64,000 bases of DNA from Candidatus Microgenomates bacterium. GTDB lineage: Bacteria > Patescibacteriota > Microgenomatia > Daviesbacterales > UBA10151. The DNA is taken from positions 1,328 through 65,327 of the forward strand of contig JACOYE010000009.1 of the NCBI GenBank assembly GCA_016182045.1, read 5' to 3'. This document shows, piece by piece, positions 11,544-63,753 of this stretch (position 1 is its first letter; each line of letters starts with the position of its first letter). The position numbers were made by a program, and so were the translations under genes. The notes under the pieces are model-generated. The model worked only from the letters and a program-made list of their open reading frames with translations. It ran no database searches and was not told where the DNA came from.

Positions 11544-11548
11544 CTAAC

Positions 11549-11770
11549 TATTCTTTCGGGGTTTTGTGTAAGTCAAAATCGGTGGTAAAACTCCACGATC
11601 CCGCACCGTCTGGTGCAGGAACGAACTGGTGAAAATCCAGTAGCGACCGTACAGTCGGAATGAAAGAAAGACGTCGTCCCCGCGAAAGCGGGGAACCATA
11701 AAATAATTATATGGATCCCAGACTTGATCTGGAATGACTGATGAATTTAGCCCCGAAAGGGGCTTTTTTG
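11549..11770 (+). ncRNA. orphan small RNA (~220 nt), class unknown
   Basis: Its own promoter lies upstream. It is GC-rich with multiple hairpins (GCACC-GTCT-GGTGC, ACTGG-TGAAAAT-CCAGT, CCCCGC-GAAA-GCGGGG). It ends in a canonical intrinsic terminator (AGCCCCGAAAGGGGCT plus T6 at 11749-11770). No + strand gene follows, and the minus-strand ORF over it looks spurious. Confidence 0.5.
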
Positions 11771-32962: not shown

Positions 32963-34495
32963 TTAGGATTCATCTCTGGCCCGATACTGTAGTGCCTCAG
33001 CTATATGTTCGGTTAGAATATTTTCTGAAGAAGCCAAATCAGCAATTGTTCTTGCCAGTTTCAAAACTCTATGATAACCTCTGGCAGATAGATTCAAAGA
33101 AGAGATGGCCATTTTTAAAAGCTCTAATCCATCTTGGGTAATGGAACAATACTCCTTTATATCCTGATTGCTCATTTCCGAATTAGTTAAAATCCTACCT
33201 TTAAATCTATCTTGTTGAATTTTTCTTGCACCCCTCACCTTATCTCTGATTGTTTTAGAATCTTCTGCCACCAATTCGGCAGATAATTTATCCACCTCCA
33301 CTGCAGGTACTTCTAAATAGATATCAATCCGATCCAAGAGAGGTCCAGAAATCCTACGTTTATATTTGGCAATCTGTCCTGGCATACAGCTACAAGAGCG
33401 TTTTCTATCTCCCAAGAAACCACAAGGGCAGGGATTTTGAGCGGCCATCAGGATAAATTGGGCGGGAAAAGTCAAAGATCCTGAGGCACGAGAAATGGTG
33501 ATTTTATGATCCTCTAGAGGTTGGCGTAAGCTTTCCAAGACCTGCCGCGGGAACTCCGGCAACTCATCCATAAATAAAACTCCTCTGTGAGCCAAAGATA
33601 TCTCTCCAGGTCTTGGGGAATTTCCACCACCAATTAAACCTATATGAGAAGCGCTATGATGAGGTGATCTGAAGGGACGAGTAGTAATAAGTGATAAGCC
33701 ATTTGGCAAAAGTCCTGCAATAGAATAAATTTTGGTAGCTTCAATTGCCTCGGAAAAAGTTAAGGGAGGTAAAATGGAAGGAAAAGCTCTGGCAAGCATA
33801 GTTTTACCGGCACCTGGCGGACCTTTTAGTAAAATATTGTGTCCGCCGGCCGCCGCAATCTCTAAGGCCCTTTTGGCCTGTTCTTGTCCTTTGATCTGAG
33901 AAAAATCATATTCATAATTTAAATCATCATCTAAATTGAGTGGCGGTTTAGGAATTGGTTTTATGAATTCCTGTCCCAAAAGTATCTTGATCACCTGCTG
34001 TAAAGAATTGGGGGCAAAAACTTTAATTCCTTCAATGATGGCTGCCTCTCCTCCATTTTCTTTGGGAACTAAAATATTTTTGAAACCGATCTCTTTTGCC
34101 AGAATTGCCAATGGTAAAATGCCATGTGTTTTTCTCAATGTCCCATCTAAAGATACTTCACCAACCACCAAAGTTTCATTAAGATTCAAAGAAGAATTTT
34201 GATGAATAATTTGACCTGACGATAAAAGTAAACCCAAAGCTATTGGCAAATCAAAGTAGGGTCCTTCTTTTGGTAAATCTGCAGGAGCTAAATTAACAGT
34301 GATCTTTTTAGCTGGGAACTCTATGTCACAATTTCTGATGGCAGATCTGACTCTTTCTTTAGACTCCTCGACTGCTCGATCAGCTAAACCGACTATGGTA
34401 AATGAAGGTAAACCTTTAGAGGCTATATCAACTTCAACAGTGACTGTTATGGCATCTAGTCCAACGTTAGCGCCAGAAAAAATTTTGGCAAACAT
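32963..34495 (-). CDS. comM: YifB/ComM-family Mg-chelatase-like AAA+ ATPase
   Basis: N-terminal MFAKIFSGANVGLDAITVTVEVD, Walker A GPPGAGKT, and a ChlI-like C-terminal region. Confidence 0.8.
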   Translation of the reverse strand: MFAKIFSGANVGLDAITVTVEVDIASKGLPSFTIVGLADRAVEESKERVRSAIRNCDIEFPAKKITVNLAPADLPKEGPYFDLPIALGLLLSSGQIIHQNSSLNLNETLVVGEVSLDGTLRKTHGILPLAILAKEIGFKNILVPKENGGEAAIIEGIKVFAPNSLQQVIKILLGQEFIKPIPKPPLNLDDDLNYEYDFSQIKGQEQAKRALEIAAAGGHNILLKGPPGAGKTMLARAFPSILPPLTFSEAIEATKIYSIAGLLPNGLSLITTRPFRSPHHSASHIGLIGGGNSPRPGEISLAHRGVLFMDELPEFPRQVLESLRQPLEDHKITISRASGSLTFPAQFILMAAQNPCPCGFLGDRKRSCSCMPGQIAKYKRRISGPLLDRIDIYLEVPAVEVDKLSAELVAEDSKTIRDKVRGARKIQQDRFKGRILTNSEMSNQDIKEYCSITQDGLELLKMAISSLNLSARGYHRVLKLARTIADLASSENILTEHIAEALQYRARDES

Positions 34496-34548
34496 TTATC
34501 TTAGTATATAATAAACTGAAATTTTGGAGAATAATTGAAGTAAAAATA

Positions 34549-34909
34549 GTGCCTAGGAAGAGAGTAAGCCAGATTCTGTTTTCTCGCTTCGCGAAGCGAG
34601 TAGATGATCATTTATCTAATGCTCCTCATTTCGACTAGTTGGCGAGCAGCCTAAGTCGGTTCTAGGATTGCAGCGGGGAGGATTGCCCTTCGACTCGTCC
34701 CGATTACATCGGGACTCGCTCAGGGCTATAGCCCTTTGCTTATCGAATACCCTGTGGCTTGATCGTTTCACTCGGCGCCACCCGAATCGTCACTGTTGCT
34801 CTATACTCGCGGTCACCCGGTCTCGCCTTGCGGCGGACACCCTACTCTTTGCTGTCTGGACTTTCCTGTCCCGATTTAATCGGGACCGATCATCCTTCTT
34901 CCTAGGCTT
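34549..34909 (-). ncRNA. rnpB: RNase P RNA (bacterial type A-like)
   Basis: On the minus strand: P1 AGCCTAGGAAGA paired with TCTTCCTAGGC; P2 GATGATC with GATCATC; P3 hairpin GGTCCCGATTAAATCGGGAC; universally conserved ACAGGAAAGTCCAGAC (P4 5' strand); CAACAGTGA (J11/12-like); P4 3' strand CTAGAACCGACTTAG. A TATAAT -10 sits just upstream. The overlapping + strand ORF 34668-34967 is spurious. Confidence 0.8.
34583..34600. repeat. perfect GC palindrome CTCGCTTCGCGAAGCGAG embedded in rnpB
   Basis: It lies between the P2 3' strand and the P1 3' strand of the RNase P RNA and belongs to the same repeat family as the coding-region insertions. Confidence 0.6.
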
Positions 34910-58539: not shown

Positions 58540-59658
58540 TTAAACAATTCTTTCCCAAGGAAATTCTTCGCGGCCGAAGTGACCATAAATAGCAGTGGGC
58601 AAATAGATTGGTCTTTGCAAATCCAATCCTTCCAAGATACCTTCCACTGATGTATCTAAAATTTTATTCATAAAAGAAATTAAAACTTTATGAGATTTTT
58701 TAGCAGTCCCAAAAGTTTCCACCTCTTGCATAGTTGGTCTTTTTGCTCCAATAAAATATGCAAGTCTTACTTCTGCCTTATCTGCCAATTTATTTGCCAC
58801 CACATTTTTGGCCAAAAACCTGGCAGCATATGCTCCAGATCTATCAACTTTTGTTGGGTCTTTTCCTGAAAAACATCCTCCGCCAACTCTGGCGTATCCA
58901 CCATATGTATCTACTACAATTTTTCTACCTGTCACCCCACAATCAGATGCCGGCCCTCCCCAATGCCAAACACCAGTACCATTAACTATCAAATCCTTTA
59001 TATTTATCTTGAAGCCATACTGATCTAAAACTGGAATTACCACTGTATTATAAAGTTCCTTCTTAACCTGATTTAGGTTGATTGATTCCTCATGTGGTAC
59101 TGCTATCACTACTTGCAAAACCCTTACTGGCTTACCATTTTTATATTCAATGGTAACTTGACTCTTACCATCCGGTCTTAAATAAGGAACCAATTTTTCT
59201 TCTCTAACTTGATCCATTCTTTTTGTTAAACCGTGGGCCAAAGTTATCGGCAGTGGCATAAATTGAGGGGTCTCTCTGCAGGCGAACCCGAACATCATTC
59301 CTTGATCACCGGCACCTTTATCTTTCTTGACACCTACGGCAATTTCTGGCGATTGTTCATGAACATATACTTCAATAGGGGATTTGTCAGAAAAATTATA
59401 CAAAGAATCTGTATATCCTAGTCTTCTTATTTGCTCTTTGGCAATTTTTTTGAAATCTACTTTTGCGTTGGCTGTTACCTCTCCGGCAATAACTACCCTG
59501 TTAAAACCAACCAATGTCTCGCAAGCGACATGACCATATCTGTCTTGGGCCAAAACTGCATCTAAAATAGCATCAGAAATTTGGTCACAAATTTTATCTG
59601 GATGACCGGCACAGACAGATTCAGATGTAAATGTAGTTATACCGTTACTTTTTATCAT
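58540..59658 (-). CDS. metK: S-adenosylmethionine synthase
   Basis: ESVCAGHPDKICDQISD and GGGAFSGKD-like motifs. Confidence 0.9.
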   Translation of the reverse strand: MIKSNGITTFTSESVCAGHPDKICDQISDAILDAVLAQDRYGHVACETLVGFNRVVIAGEVTANAKVDFKKIAKEQIRRLGYTDSLYNFSDKSPIEVYVHEQSPEIAVGVKKDKGAGDQGMMFGFACRETPQFMPLPITLAHGLTKRMDQVREEKLVPYLRPDGKSQVTIEYKNGKPVRVLQVVIAVPHEESINLNQVKKELYNTVVIPVLDQYGFKINIKDLIVNGTGVWHWGGPASDCGVTGRKIVVDTYGGYARVGGGCFSGKDPTKVDRSGAYAARFLAKNVVANKLADKAEVRLAYFIGAKRPTMQEVETFGTAKKSHKVLISFMNKILDTSVEGILEGLDLQRPIYLPTAIYGHFGREEFPWERIV

Positions 59659-59716: not shown

Positions 59717-59855
59717 AAAAAAACCTCTCATTCGAGAGGCTTAAGTTTCCTCATCCGCCATTAGGCGAGACGGGCACATCTTCCTCTCGGATTGGCACCG
59801 TTTCTTTTCGGTTGCCGTCATGCACCATACGGTACATGAACTCTTGATGCATTAT
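59717..59855 (-). promoter_or_regulatory. SAM-I-clan (S-box-like) riboswitch with terminator, upstream of metK
   Basis: Read on the minus strand: P1 and J1/2 ATCAAGAG; a GCAACC-GAAAAGAAA-CGGTGCCAATCC core matching SAM-I GCAACC...GGUGCCAAUUCC; 3' P1 GGATGAG; then terminator CCTCTC-GAAT-GAGAGG plus T7. P2 is divergent and lacks the GGAGGGA k-turn. Confidence 0.6.
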
Positions 59856-61432: not shown

Positions 61433-62533
61433 TTACCATACCTTCCTAGCTACTTTTGAAACCAATCTCAATTTCTTTTCTTGATCCTTAAATGATAAAT
61501 TATTTCCTCTAGCAACAGATGCAAACCCGCATTGAGTGCTTATTGCCAGTCGTTCTTTTGGTACGAATCGCGCTGCTTCTTCTATCCTTCTTATAATATC
61601 TTTTGGGTTTTCTAATACTGGCGTTTTTGTAGATATGAGACCTAACACCACTATTTTGTCCTCTGGCACATGAGCCAAAGGAGAAAAATCACCAGCTCTA
61701 TCGCTATCAAATTCTAATAATAATCTGTCTACTTTGGCTTTTTTAAATACTATTTTAGCAATTTTCTCATACCCGCCTCTTGCCATGAAACGATTCTTAT
61801 CATTGCCCCTGCATATATGAAGACCTTTTATTCCTGAAAAATCTTCTAATACTTTATTTATCATTTCTACACCATCACTAACTAAAGTATCTGGATTTAA
61901 CCCTTTAGCCTTAAACCATTCTTGTTGAATCGGATCAAGTAGCATCCCAAACTCTGGTGCATCTATTTGTATGTAGGTAACACCAATCCGCTCTAGTTCA
62001 GCCACACCCTCTTTTAATATTCGAGTAACTTCTTTTAAATACTCTAAAGGTGAAGGATAAATTTTGTCAGAAATCCCAGGTACAAAATAATAACTCATCA
62101 TTGTTGGGCTGGGAATAGTGATTTTTTTGGGTTTGTCTGTGATGCTTCTCAAGAATGAGAATTCATCAACAGAGATGTCATGTTTTTTCTGCAATTTTTT
62201 TACTACCCCAACTGTTACCGGATCTATAATTTTATTTCCCTGCATATCAAACCAAATAACTGTATTGCCTTTGATATTCCACTTAAATCCATCAACTGCT
62301 TTCACAAAATTATGGCAAAATACCGGCCTTCGCATTTCTCCATCGGTCAAAACATCAACCCCTACCTTTTCCTGAATACCAACAGCTTCTTTTACTGCTT
62401 TATCTTCAAATCTAACAAATTCTTCATGTGTAATTTTTCCCTCTTTTATTAGAGTTTGAGCTTCTAGTAGAAATTTAGGCCTTAGCATACTCCCAATAAC
62501 TTCTGCCCTAATAATTTTGGGGTTTATTTTCAT
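61433..62533 (-). CDS. metE: cobalamin-independent methionine synthase catalytic-domain-only protein (core MetE-like)
   Basis: 366 aa with full-length similarity to the MetE C-terminal (UroD-like) domain, including the Zn-ligand region. Confidence 0.65.
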   Translation of the reverse strand: MKINPKIIRAEVIGSMLRPKFLLEAQTLIKEGKITHEEFVRFEDKAVKEAVGIQEKVGVDVLTDGEMRRPVFCHNFVKAVDGFKWNIKGNTVIWFDMQGNKIIDPVTVGVVKKLQKKHDISVDEFSFLRSITDKPKKITIPSPTMMSYYFVPGISDKIYPSPLEYLKEVTRILKEGVAELERIGVTYIQIDAPEFGMLLDPIQQEWFKAKGLNPDTLVSDGVEMINKVLEDFSGIKGLHICRGNDKNRFMARGGYEKIAKIVFKKAKVDRLLLEFDSDRAGDFSPLAHVPEDKIVVLGLISTKTPVLENPKDIIRRIEEAARFVPKERLAISTQCGFASVARGNNLSFKDQEKKLRLVSKVARKVW

Positions 62534-63366
62534 AACTCCTCCTTTTGAATAATGACTCTAAGTGAAATAGGACCGTAATCCATTATATGACCCTTAACAA
62601 AATCAGCATCAACTCTTTCCCATTTTTTTTGAGTTAATGTTGGAGGTTCAGCATCAGTAACCAAAAATTTTCTTATGCCTGGTATTGAACACACTACGCT
62701 CCCAAACTCTCCTTTTGAGAAAGCTGCTGTAAATGAAGGAATCAAGAGAGGAACTATTTCTGGTCTAGTAAATTGTAACCTTTCTTCTGATGCTCTGATA
62801 AAATTTGGAGTCGTAGATCTTTGGTAATCAGCAATAACAATATGCCCTAAAGGTACAGTTATACGCAGGAATTCTCTCATAACCATACCTAATCTATCTA
62901 TACTTGCCATCTGATGAGTAGCATTGTGACATATTACAAGATCAAATGAATTATCTGGAACAGGTATACTTTCTACAGGTGATGTAATAACATTAATAGT
63001 TTGTCCATCATTTAAAACTTTTAATGCTTCCTCTTTTGCATGGCTGGTCATTATTTCATCTCCATCATGAAACCAAACGCTTTGTACGCCTAAACCTAAA
63101 AACTCTCTTCCTAATCTTCCAGGTCCACACATAGCATCAAGTATCCGTATTCTTCCAATACTATCTTGACCAAACATCCTTTGGACTTCTAAAGCAAGCA
63201 ACAAATCATCTGCTGACTCTGGGTAATCACACCCCTCTATGTAGGCTCTGGCTTCTCCCTCATCAAATATTTCAGACTTTTCAGGAACTCGGACACTAAA
63301 GTCAAAGCCCCTAAGGCCAAAAGGGTCAGAATCAAATTGTCTTACTTTTAATTCTTCTTGCGTCAT
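62530..63366 (-). CDS. class I SAM-dependent methyltransferase
   Basis: Motif I ILDAMCGPGRLG. Translationally coupled to the core-metE gene by a 4-nt overlap. Confidence 0.6.
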   Translation of the reverse strand: MTQEELKVRQFDSDPFGLRGFDFSVRVPEKSEIFDEGEARAYIEGCDYPESADDLLLALEVQRMFGQDSIGRIRILDAMCGPGRLGREFLGLGVQSVWFHDGDEIMTSHAKEEALKVLNDGQTINVITSPVESIPVPDNSFDLVICHNATHQMASIDRLGMVMREFLRITVPLGHIVIADYQRSTTPNFIRASEERLQFTRPEIVPLLIPSFTAAFSKGEFGSVVCSIPGIRKFLVTDAEPPTLTQKKWERVDADFVKGHIMDYGPISLRVIIQKEEL

Positions 63367-63390
63367 ATTTTCTCCTTTTAGAGCTTTTCA

Positions 63391-63705
63391 TTAAAAAAGC
63401 CCTTGCCTAATCACCAAAAATGATGATCAGACAAGGGCCTTCAAAGGCGGTACCACCTTGTTTTCCATTATTGCCATTAAAAAACTCACCGTGTGGTGAG
63501 TCTCGAAATTTTAGCAAAAATGCTTATTCTCGAGTGCTCCGATTTCTTACGACACACTCATGCGTTGTTACGGTTCGCACCCGGCAAAGCTTTTGGCTTA
63601 CAACTCCAGAGGGTAATTCGAATAAATTGCTTGGTAAGCTTTCTCCAACCGCTTACTCTCAAATGACCCCAATTTACTCTACTATTTCTCTATCACAGTC
63701 TTTAC
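63391..63705 (-). promoter_or_regulatory. T-box leader (tRNA-sensing riboswitch) with promoter and terminator
   Basis: Read on the minus strand: promoter TTGACA-16-TATACT; AGTAGAGTA Stem-I-base motif; T-box sequence AACAAGGTGGTACCGCC (consensus AGGGUGGNACCGCG). A canonical antiterminator (A1 CAAGG with CCTTG, UGGU bulge, A2 GCC-UUUGAA-GGC) is mutually exclusive with the terminator GCCCTTG...CAAGGGC plus T6. A candidate AUG-A specifier lies ~160 nt from the TSS. Confidence 0.7.
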
Positions 63706-63753
63706 AATATTTAATTGTTAATATAAGTATACCACAAAAAGTCAAGGTGTCAA

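Follow-up and report, generated by a model that had tools for sequence, protein, structure and literature searches.

Tyrosine-specific T-boxes, such as the leader of Bacillus tyrS, control transcription by attenuation. Their Stem I possesses a K-turn, a specifier loop with the codon UAC, an AG bulge and a distal loop, and an antiterminator with a UGGN bulge is mutually exclusive with an intrinsic terminator. The same features were found in a leader RNA of Candidatus Microgenomates, a member of the Candidate Phyla Radiation (CPR; Patescibacteria). The leader lies in a 64-kb (64,000-nt) stretch of contig JACOYE010000009.1, which was analyzed here and is called the window. Unlike the known tyrosine-specific T-boxes, it controls no tyrosine gene and precedes only two genes, those for a class I S-adenosylmethionine (SAM)-dependent-type methyltransferase (MT) and a single-domain MetE homologue (ME). 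It also differs in its CPR host, a score under the Rfam cutoff, two to three extra hairpins and a base after the specifier that is not a conserved purine, and the leaders of sister loci control a tRNA-Tyr gene as well. We propose that a tyrosine-specific T-box attenuator acts on a conserved MT-ME module, and that the operon was shortened from the arrangement T-box, (tRNA-Tyr), MT, ME and tyrS. We consider this reading probable, with some reserve.

Other described systems resemble parts of this locus. In Lactobacillus, a methionine-specific T-box controls yxjH, whose expression rises in medium deficient in methionine and which shares a transcript with luxS (PMC6004538). Thus, as in the Firmicute yxjH and yxjG genes under methionine T-box or S-box control, the enzyme family of ME is subject to riboswitch-type attenuation. 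However, the specifier is UAC here and AUG there, the Firmicute genes have no methyltransferase partner, and the sequence identity is moderate. MesD is a short MetE homologue that lacks the folate-binding domain, retains the zinc and homocysteine residues and is encoded next to a partner gene of another family; the partner, MesX (DUF1852), is obligatory, and MesD is confined to aerobic bacteria (PMC7857596). The MT-ME pair shares this layout. In contrast to MesX, the partner is a class I methyltransferase and not a DUF1852 protein, ME is distant from MesD (structure 3rpd, 2e-21), the hosts belong to CPR and the DPANN group, and a dependence on the partner would be drawn here only by analogy. 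In clostridia, the class I methyltransferase gene ubiG is co-transcribed with genes for homocysteine-processing enzymes under a cysteine T-box, in the operon ubiG-mccBA (PMC6004538; PMC2940859). There, as here, a T-box precedes a class I methyltransferase gene and a gene for a homocysteine enzyme. However, the clostridial enzymes are a cystathionine synthase and lyase that convert methionine to cysteine, and cysteine, the amino acid read by the T-box, is the product of the pathway, whereas tyrosine has no obvious match here. An antisense transcript of ubiG-mccBA is S-box-controlled. In the literature searched, we found neither a description of the T-box-MT-ME arrangement nor a paper on T-box riboswitches in CPR/Patescibacteria.

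The right-hand end of the window contains the whole feature, which is encoded by the minus strand. The preliminary description of this DNA, made from the letters and their open reading frames (ORFs), had proposed a strong promoter, and a promoter scan bears this out. A Sigma-70-type promoter was detected at 63726-63753, with TTGACA at -35 (63753-63748), a 16-nt spacer and a TG-extended -10 element TATACT (63731-63726), which together match the consensus at 11 of 12 positions. The leader that follows is approximately 350 nt long. In a permissive scan, the T-box model RF00230 matched at 63430-63705, a region that includes Stem I, Stem II, Stem IIA/B, the extra hairpins and the antiterminator. 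The match spans the full model (1-219), with an E-value of 9.8e-18 when the leader is searched by itself and of 1.3e-15 when the search covers the whole window. Its score is 79.7 bits against an Rfam gathering score of 93 bits, which is a curation cutoff and not a structural feature. The search with RF00230 that had been suggested as a check therefore returned a full-length match at E 1e-15 that nevertheless misses the gathering score. A default-threshold Rfam scan reported neither the T-box nor a SAM riboswitch, and permissive scans were needed. Orthologous leaders from related loci (labeled L001 and so on) score 44-99 bits with the same model, and those of L007 (93.8) and L037 (99.4) exceed 93.

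Stem I (63600-63705) contains the K-turn base, the specifier loop, the AG bulge and the distal loop. In an alignment of 15 leaders, 20 of its 24 pairs show compensatory changes. The fraction of paired cells is 93%, compared with 70% in column shuffles; the observed values were reached by none of 500 shuffles, and pairing falls to 35-48% once the partners are slid. The antiterminator (63431-63461) consists of ACAAGG, the 7-nt T-box bulge UGGUACC, GCCU, UUGA, AGGC and CCUUGU, in this order. Within the bulge, UGGU (63455-63452) is placed to pair with the ACCA 3′ end of a tRNA, and the conserved T-box sequence AAGGUGGUACCGCC is located at 63459-63446. The intrinsic terminator (63393-63442) has a 22-bp stem followed by U6, and the folded segment has an energy of -40.8 kcal/mol (z -8.5). 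The 3′ strand of the antiterminator is the 5′ strand of the terminator, and the shared CCCUUG is invariant. Compensatory changes occur at 13 of the 22 terminator pairs (14 leaders), and the inner antiterminator helix likewise covaries. We conclude from the fold and its covariation that the RNA upstream of MT-ME is a genuine T-box transcription attenuator, for which antitermination is predicted. The antiterminator/terminator switch of the preliminary description is thus upheld by the full-length match, the UGGN bulge, the competing terminator and the covariation.

Between Stem IIA/B and the antiterminator, the leader carries a lineage-specific insertion (63481-63559; fold z -4.2). It is composed of the hairpins X1 (63559-63532) and X2 (63531-63505) and of a GC hairpin with a U-run (63504-63481). 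These hairpins are conserved in related loci. The X1 hairpin (GAGUGUGUCG...CGGAGCACUC) covaries by eye across the loci, and an X1 is also present in a phenylalanine T-box. The GC hairpin with its U6 resembles an internal terminator or pause site.

By the '+0' frame rule of TBDB (PMC7778990), the specifier consists of bases 2-4 of the specifier bulge, counted from its 3′ end. In the window, this codon is UAC (63613-63615), which makes up 99% of the tyrosine specifiers (PMC7778990). On its 3′ side, the loop has the sequence GAA-U-UAC-C, after which comes the CUCU strand of the basal helix. All 17 orthologous leaders with a readable loop share UAC, while its flanking bases differ and the adjoining helices covary. 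It is also kept in three leaders with a truncated Stem I, where it lies in the terminal loop. Furthermore, the final U of UGGU is complementary to A73 of the tRNA-Tyr encoded in the operons of sister loci. Other frames were considered and rejected. UUA (Leu) is present in some leaders only; ACN (Thr) would abut the helix without a spacer and misfits the context of tRNA-Tyr and tyrosyl-tRNA synthetase (TyrRS) genes; CUC/CUU lies within a covarying, paired helix strand. Since UAC is invariant at the canonical position and genes for tRNA-Tyr and TyrRS occur in the orthologous operons, the T-box is read as one that recognizes tRNA-Tyr, not tRNA-Met.

The preliminary description had named a candidate AUG specifier, to be confirmed by folding Stem I. 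AUG is present on neither the 3′ side (GAAUUACC) nor the 5′ side (AAAUAGUA) of the loop, and the folded Stem I gives the tyrosine codon UAC (63615-63613). In the model built on AUG, the T-box senses tRNA-Met and the coupled MT supplies a methyl group to a methionine synthase. It can draw on the AUG T-boxes that control yxjH, of the same family as ME, in Lactobacilli (PMC6004538; PMC2494555), and on the nearby metK with its probable SAM riboswitch. However, in addition to the lack of AUG and the invariance of UAC in the 17 leaders, the orthologous operons hold tRNA-Tyr and TyrRS, not tRNA-Met or methionyl-tRNA synthetase. We therefore regard this model as extremely improbable.

Leaders with a truncated Stem I were observed in L006 (3559-3787), L027 (540-770; identical to L035 836-1066) and L016 (306-465). 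Their specifier lies in a terminal loop of 7-9 nt, as in the short-Stem-I T-boxes of actinobacteria. The T-box of L016 has a UUC (Phe) specifier and precedes three small ORFs that have no Pfam match.

The proposed mechanism would operate as follows. Transcription would start at approximately 63719, and Stem I would offer the UAC codon to the GUA anticodon of tRNA-Tyr. When the tRNA is uncharged, its ACCA end would pair with UGGU in the bulge, so that the antiterminator would be stabilized and transcription would read through into MT and ME. Charged tRNA-Tyr would be unable to pair, and the 22-bp terminator would form. MT would act as a fixed, translationally coupled partner of ME. In the lineage of the window, tyrS would have been relocated and the tyrosine control of MT-ME retained.

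To place the operon in context, 33 unique CPR loci gathered from reference genomes and metagenomes were compared. In related Patescibacteria, the typical order is T-box, (tRNA-Tyr), MT, ME and TyrRS. Of the 24 assessable CPR loci, 17 have an adjoining TyrRS gene, which mostly follows ME directly and in two loci precedes MT. The enzyme is of the bacterial type in most loci and of the archaeal/eukaryotic type in L006 (5952-7058) and L012 (5392-6552), with enzymes of Plasmodium, Leishmania and archaea as the best PDB matches. Genes for tRNA-Tyr(GUA) were located at L004 3845-3933, L007 3804-3889, L022 630-715, L028 3410-3495 and L036 4808-4895. In these five loci, the gene stands downstream of the T-box and 16-110 nt ahead of the MT start, and a sixth locus carries it after ME. 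GUA is the anticodon in all six, and A73 is the discriminator in the five upstream copies. In L028, there is no room for a promoter of its own for the tRNA-Tyr gene inside the T-box-controlled transcript. This layout predicts that the T-box in these loci regulates the gene of its own tRNA ligand.

Several further observations were made on these loci. L009 encodes a 74-nt tRNA-Tyr with C1-G72 and a short variable arm (2140-2213), and other lineages have a bacterial TyrRS and a long-arm tRNA-Tyr at the same operon position. Additional operon ORFs in L001 (114 aa), L002 (319 aa), L037 (90 aa) and L040/L041 (small) were set aside; they are mutually non-homologous and have no Pfam matches. The GTDB records of L001, L002 and L006 are titled 'uncultured Gammaproteobacteria bacterium', yet they show a CPR-type operon and CPR-like neighbors, and the titles look mislabeled.

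In the window, tblastn gave no match to TyrRS, and no tRNA-Tyr gene is present within it. L001 and L002 share this layout without tyrS, and L008 (Saccharibacteria) and L028 show it as independent cases. In all five operons, the T-box retains UAC, and its score is 79.7 bits in the window, 74 in L001, 90 in L002, 89 in L008 and 85 in L028, no worse than where tyrS is still preceded by a T-box. In L017, which has no adjacent tyrS, the T-box ahead of MT-ME is replaced by a SAM-I riboswitch with its own terminator (454-555; 49.5 bits against a cutoff of 44.4). The absence of tyrS from the 64-kb window and the T-box score below the Rfam cutoff would also fit a decaying remnant of a lost tyrS operon, with MT as an unrelated methylase that happens to stand beside ME. 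However, the promoter, specifier, bulge and terminator are all intact, the covariation indicates purifying selection, T-boxes without adjacent tyrS score equally high in at least three lineages, and the MT-ME synteny extends across two domains of life. Such a relic is highly improbable.

MT (62530-63366; 278 aa; Pfam Methyltransf_25/11) is preceded by the ribosome-binding site GGAG (63375-63372), and ME (61433-62533; 366 aa; Pfam PF01717) follows it. The start codon of ME overlaps the stop codon of MT as ATGA, which agrees with the coupled two-gene operon described before, and 4-nt overlaps of MT and ME recur across loci. A protein identical to MT is recorded under the name Candidatus Microgenomates bacterium, in line with the CPR host. 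ME follows MT in 33 of the 34 assessable loci (31 CPR, 3 DPANN), down to approximately 29% MT identity. It had been left open earlier that MT might be a neighbor by chance, and this synteny speaks against it. The MT family itself is narrow: a profile search of 1.84 billion representative proteins gave only approximately 14 clusters below 1e-30, and the family is restricted to CPR and DPANN. A second tier of MT relatives, with 29-33% identity, keeps the signature residues of the family and also precedes a Meth_synt_2 gene. The second-tier copies of Patescibacteria again occur with a tRNA-Tyr gene, with TyrRS and with a T-box whose specifier is UAC and whose score reaches up to 99.4 bits. The DPANN copies (Candidatus Nanoarchaeia) adjoin a divergent AsnC/Lrp regulator gene and have no tyrosine genes nearby. 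Palindromes of the TTGAATAATATTCAA type lie between the AsnC/Lrp and MT genes at L040 1790-1850, L041 4520-4560 and L045 2995-3060; they are likely operator sites.

In a neighbor-joining tree, the CPR ME proteins form one clade, and the DPANN ME proteins are nested among ME proteins that stand alone. Since ME orthologues of 52-56% identity occur without MT in larger genomes, MT is best seen as an add-on of ultra-small genomes and not as a general requirement of the enzyme family. No MT-ME fusion protein was present among the longer matches to the MT profile, which are generic methyltransferase domains fused to radical-SAM/B12, ThiF or unknown regions. Distant MT relatives occur together with a 415-aa protein (L042 261-2311; L043 5001-7504), and some of these methyltransferases have a response-regulator receiver domain. 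The 415-aa protein was considered as a hidden MetE/UROD barrel; this was rejected, as it is an adenylating enzyme of the PaaK/ANL type and belongs to a different system.

ME matches PF01717 (Meth_synt_2) with 77.3 bits against a cutoff of 21 and lacks the N-terminal Meth_synt_1 domain, in agreement with its earlier description as a MetE protein that consists only of the catalytic domain. Its best PDB match is 1ypx, a YxjG/YxjH-like protein of Listeria (3.4e-51). The functional residues of MetE are, in E. coli numbering, the zinc ligands His641, Cys643, Glu665 and Cys726 and the homocysteine-binding Ser433, Glu484 and Asp599 (PMC7857596). An alignment of 25 homologues shows no change at the zinc ligands of ME, H239, C241, E274 and C335, or at its homocysteine-binding residues, S15, E66 and D191. 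The family has more than 7,800 matches and carries the NCBI name "cobalamin-independent methionine synthase II family", and it includes proteins of Acidobacteria, Gemmatimonadetes, Armatimonadota, Thermoplasmata and others that share 52-56% identity with ME. These matches place ME in the YxjG/YxjH 'methionine synthase II' family as a diverged member. It is far under the cutoffs of the NCBIfam 'methionine synthase' equivalogs PRK04326, PRK09121, PRK00957 and PRK01207. As judged from profile and structure matches, ME is placed outside MesA–D; MesD was compared through 3rpd, and the reference sequences of MesA, MesB and MesC were not directly compared. The literature searched held no biochemistry on the YxjG/YxjH family. 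Because the residues are conserved and the orthology and the regulation, including the SAM-I riboswitch of L017, point the same way, we infer that ME methylates homocysteine. ME is most likely a zinc-dependent homocysteine S-methyltransferase that would regenerate methionine from the homocysteine left by SAM-dependent methylation.

MT matches only generic class I domains, Methyltransf_25 with 47 bits (cutoff 27) and Methyltransf_11 with 44 bits (cutoff 21). Its SAM-binding signature D77-x-x-x-G81-P-G83 is intact, and across 94 sequences no variation occurs in G81-P-G83 or in D101, the acidic residue that follows strand 2. The AlphaFold model of MT (mean confidence score pLDDT 91.6) gave 1411 fold matches to methyltransferases. 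The best matches among solved structures are NovO and CouO, C-methyltransferases that act on the tyrosine-derived aminocoumarin ring, with approximately 16% identity and a TM (template modeling) score of 0.66; generic small-molecule methyltransferases are close behind. MT is therefore predicted to be a SAM-binding methyltransferase of the small-molecule type, and its likeness to NovO and CouO is a lead and not a classification.

As to what MT does for ME, the preliminary description took it as a candidate for supplying or relaying the methyl group. The coupling to a fixed partner stands. The supply is doubtful, since a methyl group derived from SAM gives no net methionine and solo ME orthologues exist; the former argument was made by Price et al. 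for Mmp10 (PMC7857596). MT may take part in a methyl relay that balances SAM and methionine, may be a major SAM consumer whose homocysteine is recycled by ME, or may have a role tied to tyrosine. The relay would amount to a two-component SAM:homocysteine methyltransferase, in which MT, with bound SAM or with a methylated intermediate made from it, passes the methyl group to homocysteine on ME, as in MmuM/HMT, and which would serve the balance of SAM and methionine rather than net synthesis. The intact SAM motifs (D77-x-x-x-G81-P-G83 and the invariant D101), the overlapping genes with their deep synteny and the analogy with the partner-dependent MesD/MesX (PMC7857596) are in its favor. Yet each turn would yield no net methionine and one more S-adenosylhomocysteine, the SAM riboswitch of L017 would turn the pair on at low SAM, which is odd for a consumer of SAM, and ME orthologues occur alone. 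On balance, we consider the relay unlikely.

MT might also modify tRNA-Tyr or TyrRS, while ME just recycles homocysteine locally. This would account for operons that hold tRNA-Tyr and TyrRS and for L028, in which the T-box controls only tRNA-Tyr, MT and ME. However, the fold and sequence of MT resemble small-molecule methyltransferases and not RNA methyltransferases, the DPANN pair has no tyrosine genes around it, and the type of the partner stays constant while the types of tRNA-Tyr and TyrRS differ. A role of MT in the tyrosine decoding machinery is thus very unlikely.

Some findings weigh against the proposed tyrosine-specific attenuator of an MT-ME module. L003, L018 and L026 have a DAHP synthase gene next to the pair, and in L009 a prephenate-dehydrogenase-like gene is located after tRNA-Tyr; both hint at a direct tie to tyrosine that goes beyond inherited context. 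Control by tyrosine has no obvious reason in an enzyme pair of methionine and SAM metabolism. The partnership has an exception in L019 (594-2160), the sole locus in which MT lacks ME downstream (667 nt available), and solo ME orthologues are found in a 4.4-Mb genome, in a metagenome-assembled genome (MAG) of Armatimonadota and in a Thermoplasmata MAG, so that MT may not serve ME. Methionine formation by this ME clade is a prediction from sequence, and ME scores below the NCBIfam cutoffs of the PRK06520 subfamily (256 against 313 bits) and the PRK06233 equivalog (227 against 576 bits). As for the RNA, the T-box of the window stays under the gathering threshold, and where a conserved purine usually follows the specifier, the leaders have C, U, G or A.

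The genes for aromatic biosynthesis raise the question of direct tyrosine chemistry. In this case, MT would act on tyrosine or on a tyrosine-derived or phenolic compound, and the pair would belong to the supply or handling of tyrosine. For example, a methylated aromatic compound could be the methyl carrier or donor, and its use would yield or spare tyrosine while methionine is formed. Membership in the tyrosine regulon would then be functional and not historical. The tyrosine link survives rearrangement, with tyrS upstream or downstream and of bacterial or archaeal type and with tRNA-Tyr before or after the pair, and it holds down to 32% MT identity. Furthermore, a DAHP synthase or prephenate-dehydrogenase-like gene is adjacent in four loci, the T-box is kept without tyrS in at least three lineages, and NovO and CouO, the best fold matches of MT, C-methylate a tyrosine-derived phenolic ring. 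On the other side, this fold match is distant and generic small-molecule methyltransferases are near it, the homocysteine site of ME is complete, ME orthologues are solo in other phyla, the DPANN copies have no nearby tyrosine genes, and one lineage uses a SAM riboswitch. We consider direct tyrosine chemistry possible but rather unlikely. A bolder form of it is that MT and ME together are an unrecognized, partner-dependent fifth type of core methionine synthase, confined to the ultra-small-genome symbionts of CPR and DPANN, whose methyl supply or substrate would be tied chemically to tyrosine or aromatic metabolism. If true, this would explain the lasting wiring to the tyrosine T-box, tRNA-Tyr, TyrRS and DAHP synthase, and as a corollary the gene of the tRNA ligand would itself be under the control of the T-box; we consider it about as doubtful. 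The most economical reading, and the one that belongs to the proposed tyrosine-specific attenuator, is that at an early stage of CPR evolution the pair was taken up into a T-box–tRNA-Tyr–tyrS operon. The charging of tRNA-Tyr would then have become the sole transcriptional input of the pair and would have been kept even after tyrS left.

Downstream (3′) of ME, a phosphoglucomutase-type gene with its own likely promoter is followed by metK (58540-59658, minus strand), two genes downstream of ME. When the translations of the rest of the window were read by eye, no gene of the methionine cycle, folate metabolism or an aromatic pathway was seen except metK. This gene is a separate transcription unit, and its leader contains a SAM-I/IV-like element (59733-59855, minus strand) and a terminator. 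The element matches RF01725 with 35.1 bits, under the cutoff of 41.1; its E-value is 3.7e-4 in the local search and 0.068 over the whole window. The core and the terminator are conserved in the metK leaders of L001 and L002, which gives three sequences in all. Thus, the SAM riboswitch on metK that had been described earlier is probable on account of this conservation, although its score is under the cutoff. The dual RNA control of methionine and SAM metabolism that had been built on it is not upheld in that form: SAM control of metK is plausible, whereas the second input is tRNA-Tyr (UAC), not tRNA-Met.

Other RNA elements were also observed in the window. An FMN riboswitch (11548-11675, plus strand; 86.7 bits) is followed on its own strand by ORFs of at most 47 aa; the sizeable genes that come next lie on the opposite strand, and it may be an orphan or a remnant. 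RNase P RNA (34549-34905, minus strand) scores 107 bits against a cutoff of 100 and, compared with the class A model, shows large deletions. It adjoins a very weak group-I-intron-like match (34326-34547, minus strand; 21 bits, E 0.49).

The RNA class described here, the tyrosine T-box, is known, although it has lineage-specific insertions in this case, and the ME family is known though biochemically uncharacterized. As far as the searched literature shows, the new elements are the MT–ME module as a fixed pair in CPR and DPANN, its position among tyrosine-decoding genes, the predicted tyrosine T-box on a methionine-synthase-like operon, and the predicted T-box-controlled tRNA-Tyr genes. With these findings, the known range of T-boxes would come to include the Candidate Phyla Radiation, along with its truncated Stem I variants and its tRNA genes under T-box control. 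It is common practice to deduce what a downstream gene does from the T-box specifier. Since the specifier here says tyrosine and the enzyme says methionine, either this annotation logic fails or there is an unknown link between tyrosine and methyl recycling. MT–ME appears to be the form taken by the only recognizable homocysteine methyltransferase in these CPR and DPANN organisms. The pair therefore bears on how obligate symbionts may keep up SAM-dependent methylation, and on the methyl donors that short MetE enzymes would use.

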